Assembly: GCA_963668625.2 (NCBI GenBank)
Contig: CAXXKA010000008.1
Location: 1,024,001-1,088,000 of the forward strand
Direction of reading: 5' to 3'
DNA: 64,000 nucleotides
From: an uncultured candidate division Zixibacteria bacterium
GTDB taxonomy: Bacteria; Zixibacteria; MSB-5A5; UBA10806; 4484-95
Part shown: positions 27,435 to 38,473 of the stretch, one piece after another
Numbering within the stretch: position 1 is the first letter of the stretch
Layout: each line of letters starts with the position of its first letter
Made by a program: the position numbers and the translations under genes
Notes under the pieces: generated by a model
Told to the model about the DNA's origin: nothing
The model's database searches: none
Seen by the model: only the letters and a program-made list of their open reading frames with translations

Positions 27435-30400
27435 TTGTCCTCCCAATCAACTACACCTAAGCAAACAGGGGGCGGTGGTTTTCAGTTTGAAAATAAGGTA
27501 GGGGCTTACTTTTTATCATTTTTGTTGGCAGGCAAACCACCGTTTGAGCCAGAATTGGGTATAATTAAACGCTTAGATTTTCAAGTATTAAAGGGTGGCT
27601 GGCTTTTAGACGATTTACTTTTAACCCTAGAATCATCGGAAATCGTCAGACGTTGTGCATTTTCCATAAAAAGCAACAAGCAAATTACTAAAAATGGAGC
27701 CCCCAGCGATTTCGTTAATCTAATTTGGCGGCAATATTTACATGAAAATACTGATAAATTTAATTCTGATTTGGATTATCTGGGATTAATTTCTAAACCT
27801 TTTGCGCAAAATGTAAGAAATAAACTCGATGTACTTTTAAATTACTCACAAAAGCAAGATTCTGAAAACTTAAATGTACGACTGAAAGATGATAGTAGCT
27901 TAGTTGAGATATCTAGTAGCTTTAATTGTCCAGCCGACTTAGCTAGCAAATATAGCGTTACTGAAAAAAGTATAGGGGAATTGCTTAGTCACCTACTGAT
28001 TATTGATTGTGATTTTGATACCTCTATTCAAACATGGCAAAATACTGCATTTCAAAATTGTCAAGATACTTTAAAAAGTGGTTCTCCTGATGAAGCACGT
28101 AATCTTTGGGAAAGCCTTTTAATAGTTTCTCAAGATTATGATTCAAGTGGAGGAGGCATAACATACATTGATCTAATTAATTTGTTAAGAAGTCGATTTA
28201 AGTTAAAACACCATCCTGTTTACGACGGCGATTGGCGAATATTGGAAGAGTTGAAAAACGGTTATCTTAGCAGCATTAAAGATACGATTGGTAAAAACAT
28301 ATCGATACATAGAAATGAAAAAATCGTTGAGCTTAAACGAAAAACTGAGACTAACTCTATATTAATCATTATTGGAGTGAGTGGGATTGGTAAGACAGTA
28401 CTAGCCAAGCATTTCGTCGAAGATGTAAGTACATATAAGACTATATGGCTACCAGCAAGCAGTTTTTTAAGACAAGATTACGCTTCATTTGAGAATAGCT
28501 TAAATTTAAGTTATTCTCTCGCAGAATTAATAAATATTGTTCCAGAAGAGCATGCATATTTTATTATTGATAGCTTTGAGCAATTACGTACTGATGAAGC
28601 AAAGAGAAATTTAAGAATTATTATTAAAGCCTTAAAGTTAGGAAACATAAATAGCCCTTGGAAATTGCTAATTACATATAGAGCGGAAGATCTAAGCCAA
28701 ATGTATGGCATGTTAAGAGATTCGGACTTACCACTTGAATTCACATATTTCATGCAATTAGGGGATATTGAAAAAGACGAATCCAAGGAAATTTTAAACG
28801 GATTTCCTAGCTTGGAGAAACTAGCGCATAATCCAAACATTCGAAACATACTAAAAAATCCTAAATTTCTTGACTTGATTATTACAAGGCTTCAATACAA
28901 TTCCAATCTTGAACTGCCAGAATGGATAGGTGAATCCCATTTAATTGATTGGTATTGGGAAACTGCAATAAAGCAACCTTCAAGTGGAATGATTCGTGAT
29001 AATTTCTTACAAAAGCTTAGCCAAATTCAAGCTGATAAATTTGAAACTGAGACGCCTTTAATAGATTTTCAAACGTCTGAATTGAGCATTATCGATGAAC
29101 TTAAACTGGAAAACGTATGCCGAGAGCAAAATGAACAAATATCATTCTTTCATGATATTTTGGGGGATTGGGCGAGGCAAAGGATATTAATAAGCAAATC
29201 AAATAGTATATCTGAAATTATAAAGGAAAAAGTAAATTACCCGTCATGGCATAGGGCGATTAGGCTATATTGCCATCATCTTTTAGAAAATAATAGAATA
29301 GAAATATGGTCCAAGCTTTTAGATGATCTAAGTACCGCTGAGCAAGAATTCAACCTATCTCAAGATATTGTGCTTGACTCAGTAATCTATACTGTAAATG
29401 AATTATCAATGCTTGAATCTATCTGGCCTCAACTTATTAAAGATAAGGGAGTATTGTTAAGACGGTTATTGAACCGATTTTTACATATAGCAACTTATCC
29501 TAACCCAATTTACTTAACAATCGCGCATACTTTTCATCTTGATAAAGATTTGAGCTTTGCGACATTAAATCGAGTGCCATATTGGCCGTATTGGTTACCA
29601 TTATTAGAATTGATAGACAATCACAAAAGCGAAGCAAAGCAATATGCTATGAAACAGGTTTCCGAATTAGCAGATATTTGGCTACGGCAAGGTGCAAAGA
29701 TTTGGCCACTAAGAAAAGAGATAGCTCAAATAGCACTCGATATAGCTAATAATATTTTAGAACAGAAATTAATGGGACCTACAATTGTAAATAACAAGAT
29801 TGATAATACTGCATACAGAGCTGCTTTAGCTGGTGTCGATGTATTGCCTAATGAAGTTGCTGAATTTGCATTAAGAGCATGTAAGCGCAAAGTATCTCAA
29901 CTGTTACCTAAAAGTATTCGAGTACAATCTATAATGGGGACTTATGAAAGTGAAATCCCAGCCCCTTGGCCCAGAGGCCCACTTGCAAGACCAGACCATG
30001 CATTCAGGGATTTATGCTTAGGGGCAAGCGATCATGATACAATGTATCCTTTAATACTAAGCATGCCTCATATTGCCCGTGAAGTAATTTTAGCTTTGCT
30101 AATTGAAGAACCAAAGCCTTCTGATCCCTTTGAATATCGTATAAGGGATACGTATGAAATCGTAGATATGCATGGTTGGTTCCCACCGTTTTATACACAC
30201 GGCACGTTTTATTTCTTTTTAAAATCTAATGTATTAGAAGGCGTTGGCCTTATTTTAGATTTAGTCAATTTTGCAACAGAAAGATGGGCTGCATATCGTG
30301 AAAAAGAAGAGGATGAAGTACCGGGCTTAGAGATAGAAATTATTAGTAACAAAAGAATATGGTTGGGAGATGGAAGAGTATATTTCTGGTATAGGGGTGA

Positions 30401-32627
30401 ATATAGTTGTCCCCAAGCTGTTGCATCGGCATTAATGGCGCTAGAAAAATATTTAACTGATGAAATAGATTCAAATAAATCCATCAATACTATAATAGAT
30501 TTGATATTAAAAAACGCAAAATCCTTAGCATTTATAGGTTTACTTATATCTATTACCAAGAAAGACAATTCTTTGCTAAAAGGGCAATTAAAAGATTTAA
30601 TCCGTATACCAGAGATACATTTATGGGAAATGCAATACTTCCTCGATTCTCATAGCTATCAGTTAATCGGCTGGGCTACTAAAGGCGAGTATATGCTAAA
30701 ATTAGCGCAAGAGTGGCAAAATCTTAAGCACAGGACGATTGGATTTGATTATGTTTGTCTTCATTTTTTTGTCAGTTCAGAAGACATGAAAGAGTATTTT
30801 GAAGACGTCCTTTCAAAATGGAGATTAGAATATGAAGCTCTTGAAGATAATCACTATCTTAAAAACTATCTGGAAAAGTTAATCGCTCAATATGATAGCC
30901 GTAATTGGCAAAAAAAGATACATCCTCAATACGGAGAATGTTTCGAATTTGTCCCGCCAAAAGAATTGCGCGAAAAAAGCGAAAAATATGCAAAAGATTC
31001 AGAAATGGAAAGGCTTTTACTATACTGGCCGATGCAATGCTCACAAATACTTAAAGATAAATTGCCGTTAAAAATCGATGAGCTTGAATCAATATGGCCA
31101 ATAATACAAAAGCTTTATAAAATGGAATTATCAGCTGACCTGATAAAGAAAGATATTAAAAAAGAAGATGCTATATGCGGCTGTATAGCCGTTATTTTTA
31201 TTCTCCAAAGAGAATGGCTAAGGGATAATCTTGAATATGAGAATTGGTGTATTAATTATATAATCGAGACAATTAAAAATCCTATACAATTTGATGTGGA
31301 TGATAGCTCATTCAGTATAACCTACTGGACATGGGACTATTTTTGCGCCTTGGTAATCCCATATATCTGGGCAGAAGATACCGAATCTAAAGATATTAGG
31401 AATTGTATGTTATTAATGTTACGATTCCCTCGTTACTCAACTGTTCAAGCACTTTTTAAGTCCGCAATTGACAACCGAGTTAATTTAGGACTTAATTTAA
31501 ATCAAATTCAGAATTACATTCTCGCTTATTCAGGGGCAAAATGGCTTTACGATCACACGAAGCATTTGGGTAAATCGCAGTTTAAACTTGATAGATGGTT
31601 CAATAAAGAAAAAATAATTTTTATTAAGAACAAGTACCCAAAAGAACTATTATCGTGGGATAAATTAATGCCCAAAGATAGCTATTGGAATAGGTTGATA
31701 AGACGTAGAAAGTATCCAAGACAATACTCACAGTTACAAGAGTTGCCAAATTTGGATTTGTATTTAATCCAGAATGCCTTTAGCTATTTGCCTGATTTAA
31801 AGGATGCAATTGACGATTTCCAAAGAACACAGTGGATCAAGTTTTGGAAAGAATCGTTAAATTACATGCTTGCAATAATTAGTGAACGTACAAAAGACAA
31901 TGACGAGATAAATGGGACTCCATACGATTGGGATAGGTGGGTACTAAGACGCATATCCCGACTTTTATTAGAATTGGATAATAGCGAAAATCAAGAATTA
32001 TTTTGGAAACCTATTTTGGATCTAGGTTGCTCAGCACACTATTGGATTAATGATTATTTTCAGGAATGGTTTAATAATGGATTAAATGATACAACCAACT
32101 CAAAAATATTTCTTTCAATCTGGTCAAAAATGTTTGAACATGCGGATTCGTCTCCTAAATGGAGTAGAAAAAAAGAACGTAAAGGATATTATTGTAATGA
32201 GATTTGGTGTTCTTTAATGGGATTTGATTATATATGCATGGATATTTGGAGTGCTGACAAAGCAACGATTGTAAAAGAAATGAAGGATTATTTTGCTCGC
32301 TGGGCGAATAGAAATTTACTTTACGCCGACTGCATAAAAGCTTTTGCTACTTTTCTTAAGCAACCAGCGGCGATCTTGATACGTTTAGATGGTATTATTT
32401 GGCTAGATATAGGATGCAAGAGTATTGATACTTACTATTGGGAAAAATCTGATTTTCAAGAGAAGTTAGTTTCACTACTTTCAGCTTGTTGGAAAGATGA
32501 CGAAAATAATATTCGAAATAATCAAGATGTACTCAATTCTTTTAATAACTTATTGAATAAATTAGTAGAACTTCAAAACCAGACTGCAATGGAACTACAT
32601 GATCTTATAATTAATCAGAGAAAATAA
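27435..32627 (+). CDS. Nuclease-STAND NTPase, Avs (AVAST)-like antiviral protein, 1730 aa
   Basis: N-terminal TGGGGFQFE...LDDLLL...SIKS nuclease-like domain; Walker A GVSGIGKT; Walker B YFIIDS; FFHD winged-helix motif; long Trp-rich helical C-terminus. Confidence 0.75.
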   Translation: MSSQSTTPKQTGGGGFQFENKVGAYFLSFLLAGKPPFEPELGIIKRLDFQVLKGGWLLDDLLLTLESSEIVRRCAFSIKSNKQITKNGAPSDFVNLIWRQYLHENTDKFNSDLDYLGLISKPFAQNVRNKLDVLLNYSQKQDSENLNVRLKDDSSLVEISSSFNCPADLASKYSVTEKSIGELLSHLLIIDCDFDTSIQTWQNTAFQNCQDTLKSGSPDEARNLWESLLIVSQDYDSSGGGITYIDLINLLRSRFKLKHHPVYDGDWRILEELKNGYLSSIKDTIGKNISIHRNEKIVELKRKTETNSILIIIGVSGIGKTVLAKHFVEDVSTYKTIWLPASSFLRQDYASFENSLNLSYSLAELINIVPEEHAYFIIDSFEQLRTDEAKRNLRIIIKALKLGNINSPWKLLITYRAEDLSQMYGMLRDSDLPLEFTYFMQLGDIEKDESKEILNGFPSLEKLAHNPNIRNILKNPKFLDLIITRLQYNSNLELPEWIGESHLIDWYWETAIKQPSSGMIRDNFLQKLSQIQADKFETETPLIDFQTSELSIIDELKLENVCREQNEQISFFHDILGDWARQRILISKSNSISEIIKEKVNYPSWHRAIRLYCHHLLENNRIEIWSKLLDDLSTAEQEFNLSQDIVLDSVIYTVNELSMLESIWPQLIKDKGVLLRRLLNRFLHIATYPNPIYLTIAHTFHLDKDLSFATLNRVPYWPYWLPLLELIDNHKSEAKQYAMKQVSELADIWLRQGAKIWPLRKEIAQIALDIANNILEQKLMGPTIVNNKIDNTAYRAALAGVDVLPNEVAEFALRACKRKVSQLLPKSIRVQSIMGTYESEIPAPWPRGPLARPDHAFRDLCLGASDHDTMYPLILSMPHIAREVILALLIEEPKPSDPFEYRIRDTYEIVDMHGWFPPFYTHGTFYFFLKSNVLEGVGLILDLVNFATERWAAYREKEEDEVPGLEIEIISNKRIWLGDGRVYFWYRGEYSCPQAVASALMALEKYLTDEIDSNKSINTIIDLILKNAKSLAFIGLLISITKKDNSLLKGQLKDLIRIPEIHLWEMQYFLDSHSYQLIGWATKGEYMLKLAQEWQNLKHRTIGFDYVCLHFFVSSEDMKEYFEDVLSKWRLEYEALEDNHYLKNYLEKLIAQYDSRNWQKKIHPQYGECFEFVPPKELREKSEKYAKDSEMERLLLYWPMQCSQILKDKLPLKIDELESIWPIIQKLYKMELSADLIKKDIKKEDAICGCIAVIFILQREWLRDNLEYENWCINYIIETIKNPIQFDVDDSSFSITYWTWDYFCALVIPYIWAEDTESKDIRNCMLLMLRFPRYSTVQALFKSAIDNRVNLGLNLNQIQNYILAYSGAKWLYDHTKHLGKSQFKLDRWFNKEKIIFIKNKYPKELLSWDKLMPKDSYWNRLIRRRKYPRQYSQLQELPNLDLYLIQNAFSYLPDLKDAIDDFQRTQWIKFWKESLNYMLAIISERTKDNDEINGTPYDWDRWVLRRISRLLLELDNSENQELFWKPILDLGCSAHYWINDYFQEWFNNGLNDTTNSKIFLSIWSKMFEHADSSPKWSRKKERKGYYCNEIWCSLMGFDYICMDIWSADKATIVKEMKDYFARWANRNLLYADCIKAFATFLKQPAAILIRLDGIIWLDIGCKSIDTYYWEKSDFQEKLVSLLSACWKDDENNIRNNQDVLNSFNNLLNKLVELQNQTAMELHDLIINQRK

Positions 32628-32712: not shown

Positions 32713-33063
32713 TTATTTACGTCTACGCGGCTTAACGGATAGTCTCTTAAGAGCCACCTCTGCTATTTCAGTAACAGCTTCAATATCCTCAGCAGATCTA
32801 CTCTTTAATATCTCAATCAAATTATTCATAGCAAGTTGAGATTTGGTTTTCTTGTCAGGGAAATCAAACAAATCTTTCAACTCAACCTTCAAAACCTGTG
32901 ATATTCTAAACAGGGTATCAACCGAAGCCGAACGCTTGCCGTTTTCGAGCAAAGCTATAAAATTAGTGCTCAAGCCAGCCTTATCGGCTAATTGAGCCTG
33001 TGTCAGTTTCAGGCCTTTCCGTAATTGCTTAATTCGGTTTCCCAGTAAAATCAAAATATCCAT
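32713..33063 (-). CDS. XRE/controller(C)-protein-like HTH regulator
   Basis: LGNRIKQLR...TQAQLADKAGLSTNFIALLENGKRSASVDTL. Confidence 0.9.
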   Translation of the reverse strand: MDILILLGNRIKQLRKGLKLTQAQLADKAGLSTNFIALLENGKRSASVDTLFRISQVLKVELKDLFDFPDKKTKSQLAMNNLIEILKSRSAEDIEAVTEIAEVALKRLSVKPRRRK

Positions 33064-35650: not shown

Positions 35651-35724
35651 CAACACCTCCAACATATTAAGCGGCGAAGAATTTCAGCAATCACCGCTAA
35701 TACGGTTTTAAGTTTACCTGTCAT
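35650..35724 (-). CDS. 24 aa micro-ORF coupled to E1
   Basis: MTGKLKTVLAVIAEILRRLICWRC*; ATGA overlap with the E1 stop; AGGAAGGA upstream. Confidence 0.5.
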   Translation of the reverse strand: MTGKLKTVLAVIAEILRRLICWRC

Positions 35725-36392
35725 TTACGAATTCCTTCCTTGAGCAGACTCAGAGTTTTCAGATCGAGAGTGACCGCAGGTTCAATCCACTCATCATTGG
35801 CAAATGCAGCGACCTGCATACAGATCAGACCAGCTAGTGGCAGTACTGAATAAATAATCGATTTGGCGGTACAGCGTTCATCCAGGGTCTCTGAATCATC
35901 CACCAGGGTCTGTTCGTATCTTTTACAGCTTGATGGTTCACCAGGACGAATACAATAGACCTGAATTACTCGTGCTGCCATACGTGGATCGATGAGAAGC
36001 TGTGCACTGCGATTGATTGAAACCGATGCCCAAATACGCTTCCGCACATCCATAGAGTCCACCGCGGATATAACAATGTCAGCTTCGGGCTTCTGTTTGA
36101 TGAAAGACCGTGCCAGGGTAATCATTGAGATTTGCCCATCAAATTGACGGATCAGATCGGAACAGGCATCCACTTTCTTTTTACCCAGATCGCTGTCTCT
36201 ATAGAATTGGTTGGGGAGGTTCTCAACGCTTACCTTATCATTATCGATCAGCGTTAATTGACCGATTCCCATTTTACAAAGAGAAAGGGCTGTGAAACTT
36301 CCAACAGCTCCACAGCCCACTATCGCGATATGCAAATTCGCCAGCCTTTCCTGATTAACAAGTTCCTGCTGACGGATATATTTATCATCCAT
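35721..36392 (-). CDS. E1-like (ThiF/MoeB family) activating enzyme
   Basis: IAIVGCGAVGS, DNDKVSVENLPNQ, GKKKV, AVDS; candidate catalytic Cys in ERCTAK; no CxxC zinc pairs seen. Confidence 0.9.
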   Translation of the reverse strand: MDDKYIRQQELVNQERLANLHIAIVGCGAVGSFTALSLCKMGIGQLTLIDNDKVSVENLPNQFYRDSDLGKKKVDACSDLIRQFDGQISMITLARSFIKQKPEADIVISAVDSMDVRKRIWASVSINRSAQLLIDPRMAARVIQVYCIRPGEPSSCKRYEQTLVDDSETLDERCTAKSIIYSVLPLAGLICMQVAAFANDEWIEPAVTLDLKTLSLLKEGIRK

Positions 36393-36400
36393 TAGACCTC

Positions 36401-37078
36401 CTAAAAGTCCTCAAACATTGATTGCCTCGTAAGCATCTCATATTCGTGGAAATTTATGACTCCCTGGTTAAGCGCCTCCTCCAGCTCCTCCTCGCTTTCA
36501 AATTCACTAACAGGTATCATCTTTTCTTTCGGTATTTGAGGAGTTTTGTCTTTCTTAACTTTGGCTTTGAATTCGGCCTCCAGTTGTTCTTTCAACTCGC
36601 CATCTTGAGGAAAGTAAATCTGTGTCGCAACTCTATCCAAAACCATGTGACAGGGTTTGTAAACATCTATCCTCGTAAGTATCTCATCTCTGGAATTTGT
36701 AACAATGGATACCGAATACGAGCCATTGGCTAATAGCTCACAGCATTTATGGTCAGTCGAGGACCAGAATGTTTTCATATTCGCGTGACTATGAATCCAA
36801 CATTTTAACTTAGCGCAGTCAATGTTCCGCGATGCCAGGTCAATCATCAGATCGGCAACTGCCTTATCATCTATGATCGTTTCTACGCCATTTACAACTT
36901 GTGTAAGCAAGTATATCTCTGAAACCAACAGACCAGTTGTAGTGCCGTTCTCCTGCAGTTCCTCGATAATGCCTAGGGCGCTGACCTCATCACTACCAGA
37001 AAGGCTAATCCAATACCTGAACTTTGCCCAGGCTTTGTAATCGACATACACCACAAACTCATTCGGTTTCATCTTCAT
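36401..37078 (-). CDS. JAB/MPN+ metallopeptidase (deubiquitinase-like)
   Basis: DEVSALG (Glu) ... WIHSHANMKTFWSSTD (HxH-x7-S-x2-D); start taken at ATG 37078 after a GGAGGTG SD. Confidence 0.88.
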   Translation of the reverse strand: MKMKPNEFVVYVDYKAWAKFRYWISLSGSDEVSALGIIEELQENGTTTGLLVSEIYLLTQVVNGVETIIDDKAVADLMIDLASRNIDCAKLKCWIHSHANMKTFWSSTDHKCCELLANGSYSVSIVTNSRDEILTRIDVYKPCHMVLDRVATQIYFPQDGELKEQLEAEFKAKVKKDKTPQIPKEKMIPVSEFESEEELEEALNQGVINFHEYEMLTRQSMFEDF

Positions 37079-38267
37079 CGTCACCTCCCTGATGTGGACA
37101 ATCCATAATATCACAGTTTAAGCAATGATTTTGATTAACAGAGTGACAGCTTTCGTAATCCTTATAGTACAGGCAGGTGGTAAACCTGCAGGTCATACAC
37201 TTCTTTGGATCAACATCATGACAATCAGTTAGCAGTTCAATGCCAGGTTCACATCGATCAGGGCAGTTTACGCAGTTCTCGAAATGTATATCTTCGATGC
37301 ATTCGTTCAATGCATTCTCATAGTACGGACAAAAACTATCTCCACAGTCGAGGCAAATACGTCCATAACTACCGCCTTCTCGGCAACGTTCATACTCGTC
37401 CTTTTCTTCAGAGTAATCGGGATCATTCCAGAATTGTATGCGTTGGTAGGCATCATCTTCATTGTACTCGTGTACGAACTTATGAAGTATTTCCAGAGTG
37501 CCGAAAATCTCGTATTCGCCCATCATCTGGCGAAGACCTGAGGCGATGTTCCCTAGACAAATCTCATTGTCGCTGTTCACGTGTGGATGTGGATAATCAT
37601 TCACTGTGTTATCGTGGTTATAGATCTTAGCCCGGCCCTCACTCAGATTAAGCTCTATCTGAAGCTCACCAATTTCGAATTCCTCTCCATCGTGCTGGAT
37701 ATAAACCGTGTGAGTTATAGCACGAAGATACTTATCATCTATGGTGATTGACTGATACATCCCAGGGACCAGCTTTTTCAACTGATGATACTCGTTGACG
37801 ATTTTTTTACATATCGGTAGGCTTGGATGACTTAGCTGATCCAAAACATGCTTATCGATATTGCGCGTCCTGGTTAGTTCGAATATCTGACGGTTTAGAC
37901 TATCCAGCGTGTTATCAGCCTGGTAGACAGAGTTCTTGAGCGCCTGTTTACGTTCCTCAAACCCTGACAGGACCAGCTTCTTAAGCTGATCCCGTTTTTG
38001 TGTGTGGTACTTCTGTGACAATGGCAGAAGATGTTCCTCAAGAGCTTTAGTGATAACCTCCAGGTTGTCTTCATTGAGCGGATACCCTATGTGAAGAGTA
38101 AGTTCCTCGACCTTGACTGGAATATCGGCGTTCTCCTTAAAAACGACCTGGATTGCATCTGGATTGTTTTGAGTAAATACATCAGAAGGTAACTGCTCGA
38201 CCTCGATAGGAACGTTGAGTGACTGGGCGTGATAGCTGGCAAGAGAGTTAATCTTCTGCCAGATCAC
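37059..38267 (-). CDS. Coiled-coil + E2/UBC-like domain + four Cys4 repeats
   Basis: YPHPHVNSDNEICLGN matches the E2 HP(N/H)...G.ICL active-site motif; GTGA overlap with the Ubl stop. Confidence 0.8.
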   Translation of the reverse strand: MIWQKINSLASYHAQSLNVPIEVEQLPSDVFTQNNPDAIQVVFKENADIPVKVEELTLHIGYPLNEDNLEVITKALEEHLLPLSQKYHTQKRDQLKKLVLSGFEERKQALKNSVYQADNTLDSLNRQIFELTRTRNIDKHVLDQLSHPSLPICKKIVNEYHQLKKLVPGMYQSITIDDKYLRAITHTVYIQHDGEEFEIGELQIELNLSEGRAKIYNHDNTVNDYPHPHVNSDNEICLGNIASGLRQMMGEYEIFGTLEILHKFVHEYNEDDAYQRIQFWNDPDYSEEKDEYERCREGGSYGRICLDCGDSFCPYYENALNECIEDIHFENCVNCPDRCEPGIELLTDCHDVDPKKCMTCRFTTCLYYKDYESCHSVNQNHCLNCDIMDCPHQGGDDEDETE

Positions 38268-38473
38268 CGGCGACCACCTTTGATCTGAGGGTTCATCGTA
38301 ACCACGTCACCATCCTGCACCGGCGAGCTGTCAAATGCAGGGTGACCGTTTAAGGTAATTGTCATATGATCACGGTTGAAACCCGCAGCCTGTATAACGT
38401 GCTCTACGTTTGCGCCTTCTTGAATTTCAACCTCTTTAGCGGACTCACCTAGCTTTAGAACCTTGACTTTCAT
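38264..38473 (-). CDS. Ubiquitin-like beta-grasp (ThiS/MoaD-like) protein ending GG-RR
   Basis: MKVKV...ITLNG...VQDGDVVTMNPQIKGGRR; AGAGGAG SD. Confidence 0.88.
   Translation of the reverse strand: MKVKVLKLGESAKEVEIQEGANVEHVIQAAGFNRDHMTITLNGHPAFDSSPVQDGDVVTMNPQIKGGRR

Follow-up and report, generated by a model that had tools for sequence, protein, structure and literature searches.

Gene organization of the Ubl cassette

The DNA analysed here, referred to as the window, is a 64,000-nucleotide stretch from an uncultured candidate division Zixibacteria bacterium (assembly GCA_963668625.2, contig CAXXKA010000008.1, positions 1,024,001–1,088,000 of the forward strand). It contains a cassette of four co-directional, overlapping genes in the order Ubl–E2–JAB–E1, which encode a ubiquitin-like protein (Ubl), a relative of the ubiquitin-conjugating enzymes (E2), a JAB/JAMM peptidase and a relative of the ubiquitin-activating enzymes (E1). 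The most conspicuous element of the cassette is the C-terminal tail of the E2, where 16 cysteine residues form four tandem four-cysteine (Cys4) units directly after a UBC core. These cysteines are conserved across strongly diverged relatives, and the module that they define was found only in fusion with this kind of E2. The cassette genes, the parts of the E2 and the neighbouring genes are listed in Table 1.

Table 1. Features of the Ubl cassette and its surroundings (window coordinates; aa, amino acids; HTH, helix-turn-helix; ORF, open reading frame)
Feature	Position	Strand	Description
Ubl gene	38264..38473	(-)	69 aa, ThiS/SAMP2-like beta-grasp; C-terminus ...IKGGRR
E2 gene	37059..38267	(-)	402 aa; N-terminal alpha/beta domain, long helix, UBC core, 16-Cys tail
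E2 residues 1-60	38088..38267	(-)	Small alpha/beta N-terminal domain; fastest-evolving part
E2 residues 66-146	37830..38072	(-)	One long helix (AlphaFold2)
E2 residues 148-282	37422..37826	(-)	UBC core; HPH 227-229 (37581-37589), catalytic Cys237 (37557-37559)
E2 residues 283-402	37062..37421	(-)	Acidic Cys-rich tail, 30 Asp/Glu versus 9 Lys/Arg
Cys4 unit 1	37329..37385	(-)	C295, C305, C308, C313; C-x9-C-x2-C-x4-C; best conserved unit
Cys4 unit 2	37251..37301	(-)	C323, C332, C335, C339; C-x8-C-x2-C-x3-C
Cys4 unit 3	37173..37223	(-)	C349, C357, C360, C365; C-x7-C-x2-C-x4-C
Cys4 unit 4	37098..37148	(-)	C374, C382, C385, C390; C-x7-C-x2-C-x4-C
JAB/JAMM peptidase gene	36401..37078	(-)	Motif H-x-H-x7-S-x2-D intact (HSHANMKTFWSSTD)
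E1 gene	35721..36392	(-)	223 aa, single ThiF adenylation domain; Pfam ThiF 1.7e-27, residues 13-194
Kiwa pair	38775-40243	(+)	KwaA, 187 aa (PADLOC 1.4e-91), and KwaB, 302 aa (5.5e-129)
1730-aa protein	27435-32627	(+)	nSTAND3/NACHT NTPase domain, residues 296-455; long N- and C-terminal regions without assignment
XRE-type HTH gene	32713-33063	(-)	Comes after the 1730-aa nSTAND3/NACHT gene
432-aa ORF	40602-41900	(+)	Directly beyond KwaB; without Pfam family

Structure of the E2

The E2 is a member of the UBC/E2 superfamily, as defined by its HPH...Cys motif and alpha/beta fold. Residues His227, Pro228, His229 and Cys237 are invariant in 27 homologues and at least 90% conserved in a set of 138. 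An AlphaFold2 model built on 138 sequences has a mean predicted local distance difference test score (pLDDT) of 93.2, and a Foldseek search of this model against the PDB returns eukaryotic E2s first, including UbcH10, Rad6b, UbcH7 and UBE2L6. The top ten matches have E-values from 4e-3, probabilities up to 1.00 and target template modelling (TM) scores of 0.41–0.53. In a phmmer search, HPHVNSDNEICLG of the E2 pairs with HPNVYADGSICLD of human UBE2A at an E-value of 0.8. No family match to the E2 was found in Pfam (including UQ_con), PADLOC, NCBIfam or PHROGs, eight diverse homologues have no significant match in Pfam, and the solved bacterial E2s (Bil, Bub and Cap2) are absent from the results of both the sequence and the fold searches. 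In the BFVD set of viral structures, the best matches of the full-length E2 are A0A516LAI7, A0A516LW79, A0A516KZW4 and A0A8S5PR93 (E-values of 1e-4 to 6e-4); these are uncharacterised proteins of 420–520 residues from uncultured phages and would fit as unannotated phage members of the family.

The initial annotation of the locus had described a long coiled coil ahead of the E2 domain, and this is borne out both by the helix that AlphaFold2 places there and by a homodimer prediction that stands above its controls. The predicted homodimer has an interface score (ipSAE) of 0.64 (0.61–0.66 across runs), compared with 0.00 for the best of three controls. The mark used to judge this score is reached by 20 of 30 solved pairs and by 1 of 23 solved single chains, a calibration that is rough since the E2 was modelled from our own alignment. 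The runs have at least 88% of their contacts in common, with partner pLDDT values of at least 78. Contacts pairing residues 138/110, 124/124 and 111/142 indicate an antiparallel coiled coil, and the interface also includes residues 11–21 and 37–38 of the N-terminal domain and residues 152–181, 208–211 and 250–254 of the UBC core. The E2 is predicted to be an antiparallel coiled-coil homodimer, a rod to each end of which one chain would contribute its UBC core and tail and the other its N-terminal domain. No tail residues contribute to the predicted interface.

The 16-cysteine tail

The E2 contains 18 cysteine residues, of which 16 lie between residues 295 and 390 (window 37098–37385), at positions 295, 305, 308, 313, 323, 332, 335, 339, 349, 357, 360, 365, 374, 382, 385 and 390. 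The other 306 residues contain only Cys153 and the catalytic Cys237. The initial annotation had assigned the 16 cysteines to four units of the form C-x(7–9)-C-x2-C-x(3–4)-C, and a pattern search returns exactly the peptides that it quoted; the span it gave, 37085–37390, is right to within a few codons. Sixteen or more cysteines in 96 residues would be expected by chance with a probability of 5e-14 at a background of 1.2%. Among 200,000 shuffles of the 96-residue segment, none reproduced four matches to the motif and two reproduced three. A tandem DNA repeat or recent duplication was also considered and rejected, the DNA showing merely a trivial 13-bp repeat.

Conservation of the tail was followed at three depths. 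The close family, drawn from 5.8 billion clustered proteins, has 27 members of about 400 residues with 48–80% identity, in which every one of the 16 cysteines is at least 90% conserved. All 16 are retained in 22 of the 23 full-length or near-full-length members, and one more differs by a single Cys-to-Tyr change. One homologue (P0012) lacks exactly one unit, a deletion that is compatible with any register of the metal sites because the product is the same, and two others (P0026 and P0027) stop short of the tail. Among 65 diverse tail-bearing sequences, 14 cysteines are invariant and the other two are at least 90% conserved. When 20 tails from independent loci (25–56% identity) were aligned on their own, all 16 cysteines proved invariant, and besides them just one proline and one glutamate are kept in at least 90%. 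The restriction of conservation to these positions is the signature expected of metal ligands. The third-to-fourth cysteine spacing of unit 2 varies from x2 to x5 among relatives, and a 17th cysteine present in many homologues is Ser287 in the window E2.

Mean pairwise identity in the close family is 38% for the N-terminal domain, 66% for the UBC core and 55% for the tail outside its cysteines, with unit 1 reaching 69% outside its cysteines. Because it is more variable than the tail, the N-terminal domain is the likelier site for target-specific recognition. Block means of pLDDT in the full-length model are 77–97 across residues 281–390 and drop to 70 and 40 in the final 12 residues, and the tail is predicted to form short helices. 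Folded alone, the tail has a mean pLDDT of only 68. The tail is thus confidently modelled in the full-length protein and not on its own, a hint from modelling that it may pack on the rest of the E2. Structure prediction of the repeats, which the initial annotation had proposed as a check, did not yield a structural match: the best Foldseek hit of the tail-only model in the PDB has an E-value of 8.9, which is weak evidence given the confidence of that model. The ESM Atlas contained no usable match to E2 residues 285–402, and a Pfam search of 20 tails gave nothing below an E-value of 0.05. With neither a Pfam family nor a structural match, the 16-Cys domain may represent a new metal-binding fold.

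The tail is one of several C-terminal modules

To survey E2 tails without bias, we scanned IMG/VR viral and metagenome DNA with a degenerate DNA motif encoding HPH[VI]-x6-C[LW]GN, which is blind to the tail. The 120 metagenome loci obtained are the matches listed and represent a lower bound, as do the family counts built on them. True E2 homologues are present in all 30 IMG/VR viral loci and in 115 of the 120 metagenome loci among the matches listed (145 of 150 overall). When 120 unique E2 cores from these matches, chosen by active-site motif alone, were sorted by tail, 16 carried the 16-Cys module, 18 carried other tails with at least 14 cysteines, 5 had C-x2-C-x4-H-x4-C (CCHC) tails, 6 had other Cys-rich tails, 7 had few-Cys tails and 68 had almost no cysteine. 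The initial annotation had reasoned that its reading would fail if the repeats were missing from most homologues and their deletion altered neither conjugation nor phenotype. On the first of these points, the module is indeed absent from most of the wider family (present in 16 of 120 among the matches listed), whereas its cysteines are kept in the close homologues.

The 16-Cys module is found only in fusion with this kind of E2. Across all fetched loci, each of the 34 tail-profile matches lies in an E2 ORF and none in a separate gene, no stand-alone tail protein of 58–205 residues was found, and all 13 of the longer tail-profile matches carry the HPH..C motif. A FastTree phylogeny of the UBC core has low resolution (148 columns; 51 of 123 branches open) and is unable to count gains and losses, the 16-Cys label needing two to eight changes on it. 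Tail types do cluster in this tree: the window E2 belongs to a clade of eight tail-bearing E2s (support 99), and the nearest group to that clade consists of the five CCHC-tail E2s (support 97). A two-unit, 8-Cys version of the tail also exists. The neighbouring CCHC tails and the two-unit version mark the site directly after the core as a hot spot at which metal-type modules are exchanged.

A second, unrelated class of Cys-rich tail contains 17–19 cysteines and starts ...NPC-x2-C-x3-C-x3-C-x3-C.... It could not be assigned to a family, matches the 16-Cys module roughly in frequency and fully in acidity, and occurs at loci L055, L060, L068, L077, L081, L100, L104, L112, L122, L141, L154, L158, L160 and L162.

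The tails also fall into groups by charge. The median net charge is -23 for 16-Cys tails and -22 for the unrelated Cys-rich tails, over about 120 residues, and the Cys-poor tails have a median length of 10 residues and are near neutral. Two to four tandem E2 genes are present in 16 of the 145 loci (among the matches listed), most of them preceding a single JAB–E1 pair. Alternative Cys-rich modules after the UBC core, together with the variable N-terminal domains and the tandem E2 genes, would fit the E2 as the specificity component of the system.

The largest E2 arrays are at L118, with four ORFs, and L157, with three; loci L020, L030, L033, L043, L044, L050, L073, L087, L105, L107, L114, L135, L138 and L153 have two each. 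Of the two copies at L153, only one ends in a 16-Cys tail. A number of the tandem pairs could be split genes. The E2 of L005 and L009, which are the same place (L005:6001-7148), is divided into two ORFs covering residues 1–76 and 131–372 and is missing the last tail unit, and the E2 relative at L010:1345-2478 has an in-frame TGA. These two E2s may be decaying copies or assembly errors.

The other cassette proteins

The Ubl matches SAMP2 (3.3e-6) and ThiS (3.4e-5) in Pfam and ThiS in NCBIfam (9e-11). Its C-terminus ends in GGRR, so two residues would need to be trimmed before Gly-Gly is exposed. A GG dipeptide lies near the C-terminus in 59 of 83 unique Ubl ORFs from related loci, usually with a few extra residues after it. 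The JAB protein has a weak Prok-JAB match in Pfam (0.067), and its intact motif corresponds to what we take to be the JAMM consensus. We place its start at the ATG at 37078, behind GGAGGTG, as a likelier choice judged from the DNA than the GTG at 37114 given by mechanical ORF calling. With this start, the JAB gene overlaps the 3' end of the E2 gene by 20 nucleotides; the start of the E2 gene is in turn overlapped by the Ubl stop, and the two overlaps suggest translational coupling along the operon. The solved proteins nearest to the E1 are PaaA, the active domain of UBA7, UBA5, MccB, MoeB and ThiF. There is no separate E3 (ubiquitin ligase) gene in the operon.

A proposed role for the tail

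We propose, with a probability of about one half, that the tail is an acidic accessory domain with four zinc sites that recruits a target or partner to a rod-shaped, dimeric E2 working without an E3. In this proposal the JAB peptidase would trim the Ubl to Gly-Gly, and the minimal, homodimer-type E1 would adenylate it and hand it to Cys237. No E3 would be needed, since the E2 itself would pick what is modified. The four Cys4 units would fold into a compact, strongly acidic metal domain, most likely with four structural Zn(Cys)4 sites, as one of several interchangeable C-terminal accessory modules of the E2 family. This domain may provide a docking surface where basic, lysine-rich targets, or else a partner protein, are brought close to the active site. 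The tail would then substitute for an E3 by recruitment, and not as a catalyst of the RING, HECT or RBR type.

Several observations weigh against this proposal, some touching the metal and others the docking role. The spacing C-x(7–9)-C-x2-C-x(2–5)-C also fits known [4Fe-4S] motifs, and unit 2 of many relatives contains a C-x2-C-x2-C triad. The best PDB profile match of the tail, which is non-significant (E-value of 0.22), is 2y8n_B, the small subunit of 4-hydroxyphenylacetate decarboxylase, with two [4Fe-4S] clusters. Within the close family, the tail is better conserved than the N-terminal domain, unlike a fast-evolving target-recognition surface. Its low confidence when folded alone (pLDDT of 68) is a further point, as is the finding that most family members work without any such tail (the 68 of 120 with almost no cysteine, among the matches listed). 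Finally, JAB, E1 and Ubl show no basic patch that tracks the acidic tail, the shifts in net charge being small and confounded by relatedness.

The metal is probably zinc. A ligand count of 16, or four times four, with conservation confined largely to cysteine would fit a structural Zn(Cys)4 domain. The hydrophilic, Asp/Glu-rich sequence between the cysteines and the predicted helical character of the tail point the same way, as do a histidine at a ligand position in the sister CCHC tails and CPxCG ribbon-type pairs in relatives. The second PDB profile match, also non-significant, is a zinc-ribbon RNA polymerase subunit (E-value of 0.42).

Iron–sulfur (Fe-S) binding is a less probable assignment. 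The ligand spacing is compatible with the Fe-S motifs of endonuclease III, WhiB and anamorsin, and small ferredoxins are likewise acidic. The 2y8n_B match, the unit 2 triads and a conserved Cys-Pro after unit 1 are all consistent with clusters, and Fer4_2 and Fer4_6 each touch one of 20 tails in Pfam (E-values of 0.24–0.27). None of these matches is significant, however, and the window tail lacks the ferredoxin motif CxxCxxCxxxCP, an absence with which other modes of Fe-S binding are still compatible. The knuckle-type CCHC and ribbon-type CPxCG tails of the relatives are typical zinc motifs, the sequence between the cysteines is hydrophilic and acidic, and the model predicts short helices instead of a ferredoxin fold. 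It is unlikely, in our estimation, that the tail binds up to four [4Fe-4S] clusters, or [2Fe-2S] clusters, and acts as a sensor through which conjugation responds to redox state or iron, in place of a docking surface. If it did, Ubl conjugation would be linked to redox sensing.

A related and more speculative scheme, which we regard as a long shot, would make the tail a redox- or metal-labile switch, built on four Fe-S clusters or on oxidation-sensitive zinc-thiolate sites, that gates an E3-less, TRIM-like antiparallel dimeric E2. Conjugation would then fire only when infection perturbs the redox or metal state of the cell, and a single E2 chain would serve at once as sensor, catalyst and specificity factor, a device common to phages and bacteria.

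The tail could instead be an internal scaffold that docks the E2 on its own E1, JAB or Ubl without binding targets, for example by replacing the ubiquitin-fold domain that is absent from the minimal E1. The E1 has only 223 residues and no E2-binding domain, and the tail is fairly conserved in the close family. The E1 is also less negatively charged in loci with Cys-rich tails (median of -1 to -5 versus -8; p = 0.007, the relatives not being independent). Yet E1, JAB and Ubl are conserved across the whole family, the 68 of 120 E2s that lack a Cys-rich tail (among the matches listed) have E1 and JAB partners of the same kind, and the absence of a basic patch tracking the tail in JAB, E1 or Ubl counts here as well; on balance we find a scaffold quite improbable.

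A fourth explanation makes the tail a cap for structure or solubility that is under purifying selection for fold stability alone and binds nothing specifically. This would account for the conservation of only the ligands and for the dispensability of the module in most of the family. It accords poorly with the retention of all 16 cysteines from 25% identity upward in phage and bacterial copies alike, with the equally strong acidity of unrelated Cys-rich tails, and with the repeated refilling of the site by other metal-type modules where simple loss might be expected. Cysteine retention, common acidity and module replacement together argue for a selected surface property, and a mere cap seems rather improbable.

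Relationship to E3 ligases

The initial annotation had suggested that the repeats are a built-in E3 or adaptor. The foundation of that suggestion holds, in that the repeats are real, conserved and attached to a genuine E2 behind a predicted coiled coil, but they have no likeness to a known E3 module in Pfam, Foldseek or their ligand patterns. Its companion statement, that bacterial defence pathways with Ubls lack a known E3, agrees with the published description of Bil as E3-less (PMC11601596). An E3-like role of the tail, in the sense of recruitment, is plausible.

A role as an E3-type catalytic module, either in RING-like activation of a closed E2~Ubl conjugate or in an RBR- or RCR-like cysteine relay, is in contrast very improbable. 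The combination of a coiled coil, metal modules and Ubl transfer does recall TRIM-type ligases, and the predicted E2 dimer is antiparallel, as in TRIMs. The tail nevertheless has no cross-brace C3HC4 pattern of the RING or U-box kind, each unit containing one CxxC and two single cysteines without a conserved histidine, and B-box and IBR ligand patterns are also absent. No RING-family match was found in Pfam for 20 tails at E-values up to 1, and none in Foldseek. For an RBR- or RCR-type relay, the tail has neither a histidine ligand nor a conserved cysteine beyond the 16, and no Pfam match. If all 16 cysteines bind metal, four Cys4 sites leave no conserved cysteine for a thioester relay; the 17th cysteine of other homologues is a serine in the window.

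Comparison with known systems

Bacterial Ubl conjugation, as exemplified by Bil, Bub and the type II cyclic oligonucleotide-based antiphage signalling system (CBASS), is a recent field in which the choice of targets without an E3 is an open question. Of the bacterial systems compared, the present family is the one whose E2 core is most eukaryote-like and whose E1 is most minimal. Its exchangeable modules at both E2 termini and its E2 arrays make it a natural system for the study of E2-only specificity, and if the tail recruits targets, tail swaps would be a direct test of E3-independent substrate selection.

The closest published counterpart is BilABCD, a bacterial ISG15-like anti-phage operon (PMC10557695; PMC11601596), whose Types I and II correspond to rows 6d and 6c of Iyer et al. 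2006 (PMC1779556). Bil likewise combines a Ubl, an E2, a JAB and an E1, with matching gene order and without an E3, its JAB removes extra Ubl residues after a conserved glycine, and it is sporadically distributed near defence systems. Bil E2s have been proposed to recognise their targets directly (PMC11601596). The Bil E1 contains tandem adenylation domains and a Cys domain (PMC11601596), whereas the E1 here is a single 223-residue ThiF domain. Row 6d E2s lack the classical histidine before the cysteine (PMC1779556), whereas the HPH motif is invariant here. The available text of PMC10557695 and PMC11601596 mentions zinc in the Bil E1, and neither a coiled-coil rod nor a Cys-rich tail in Bil E2s.

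Bub (6E/DUF6527) is also a defence-linked bacterial kit of Ubl, E1, E2 and peptidase. It differs in that Ubl is fused to E2 and JAB to E1, or E2 to E1, in that its protease is a DUF6527 serine protease, and in that its intermediates are oxyesters formed without a catalytic cysteine (PMC11601596). We considered and excluded an identity with Bub: the genes here are separate, the E2 cysteine is invariant, and neither the cassette proteins nor the neighbour proteins gave a DUF6527 match. The BubCD match to the window E1 is only 1.6e-4.

Among eukaryotic enzymes, Cdc34/UBE2R and yeast Rad6 combine a UBC core (HPN or HPH...Cys) with an acidic C-terminal extension that docks on basic partners or substrates, and the docking role proposed for the window tail would be analogous. 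Their tails are disordered and metal-free, whereas the window tail is a predicted folded domain with 16 cysteines on an E2 that is also modelled as a coiled-coil dimer. The TRIM E3s and the E2/E3 hybrids UBE2O and BIRC6 offer an antiparallel coiled-coil dimer, metal modules and ubiquitin transfer in one chain. The window E2 differs from them in having no RING or B-box pattern, in using a UBC domain as its catalytic unit and in showing no detectable homology.

Archaeal and bacterial operons encoding an E1, an E2, a small RING protein and a JAB were reportedly described by Burroughs, Iyer and Aravind in 2011. Operons of the Caldiarchaeum type (PMC5654768) resemble the cassette in joining a classical His-Pro E2 to E1, Ubl and JAB genes. 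They differ in encoding a larger E1 and a RING E3 as a protein of its own. The window cassette lacks a RING gene, and its metal module, which does not resemble a RING, forms part of the E2 chain.

Distribution of the cassette family

The cassette appears to represent a large and so far undescribed family. An exhaustive search of 1.84 billion representative sequences with the E2 gave 847 clusters at an E-value of 1e-3 or better. In loci with enough sequence, the E2 gene is nearly always followed by a JAB gene and then by an E1 gene of about 220 codons, and the Ubl gene either precedes the E2 gene or comes after the E1 gene. Within the window's own phylum, the E2 is present in 6 of 285 genomes, the window genome included. 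Neither the cassette family nor a coiled-coil E2 with a Cys-rich tail is described in the available text of PMC10557695, PMC11601596, PMC11601603, PMC1779556, PMC7824862 or PMC13434031, although the supplementary operon tables of PMC10557695 and PMC11601596 may list members. The accessible text of the jumbo-phage survey PMC7824862 does not mention JAB, ThiF, Ubl, E1-like or UBC proteins.

Much of the family appears to be phage-borne. Ten genes flanking the viral loci include ParB-like, primase/helicase, terminase-like, methyltransferase and SbcD-like PHROGs, and many of the viral contigs that carry the cassette exceed 140 kb. A tblastn search with the E2 found no match at an E-value of 1e-3 in 72,556 plasmid and 50,697 cultured-phage records, so that all known phage relatives come from uncultured contigs. 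The four cassette genes stay together in close relatives, whose ORFs, searched at the protein level, include no KwaA, no KwaB and neither of two other tested neighbours from the window. The cassette therefore moves as a unit.

Genomic neighbourhood

A complete Kiwa pair lies divergent from the Ubl cassette, the two sharing a 300-bp intergenic region, and beyond the other end of the cassette are the gene for the 1730-residue nSTAND3/NACHT protein and an XRE-type regulator (Table 1). With these neighbours the region looks like a defence island, in which the cassette may have a defensive function. The 1730-residue protein is possibly an Avs-like sensor of the same island, and the 432-residue ORF beyond KwaB may be a further island gene.

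Assignment of the cassette to the PRTRC system was considered and rejected, the E1 scoring 36.8 bits in NCBIfam against a cut-off of 144.75. On a separate 180-kb viral contig (L036:479-2988, minus strand), a ParB-like gene and an ATPase gene lie 2.7 kb from the cassette (PHROGs 1.6e-13 and 1e-137). Two unassigned ORFs occupy the interval, and the arrangement recalls the ParB–ThiF 'PRTRC' cassettes.

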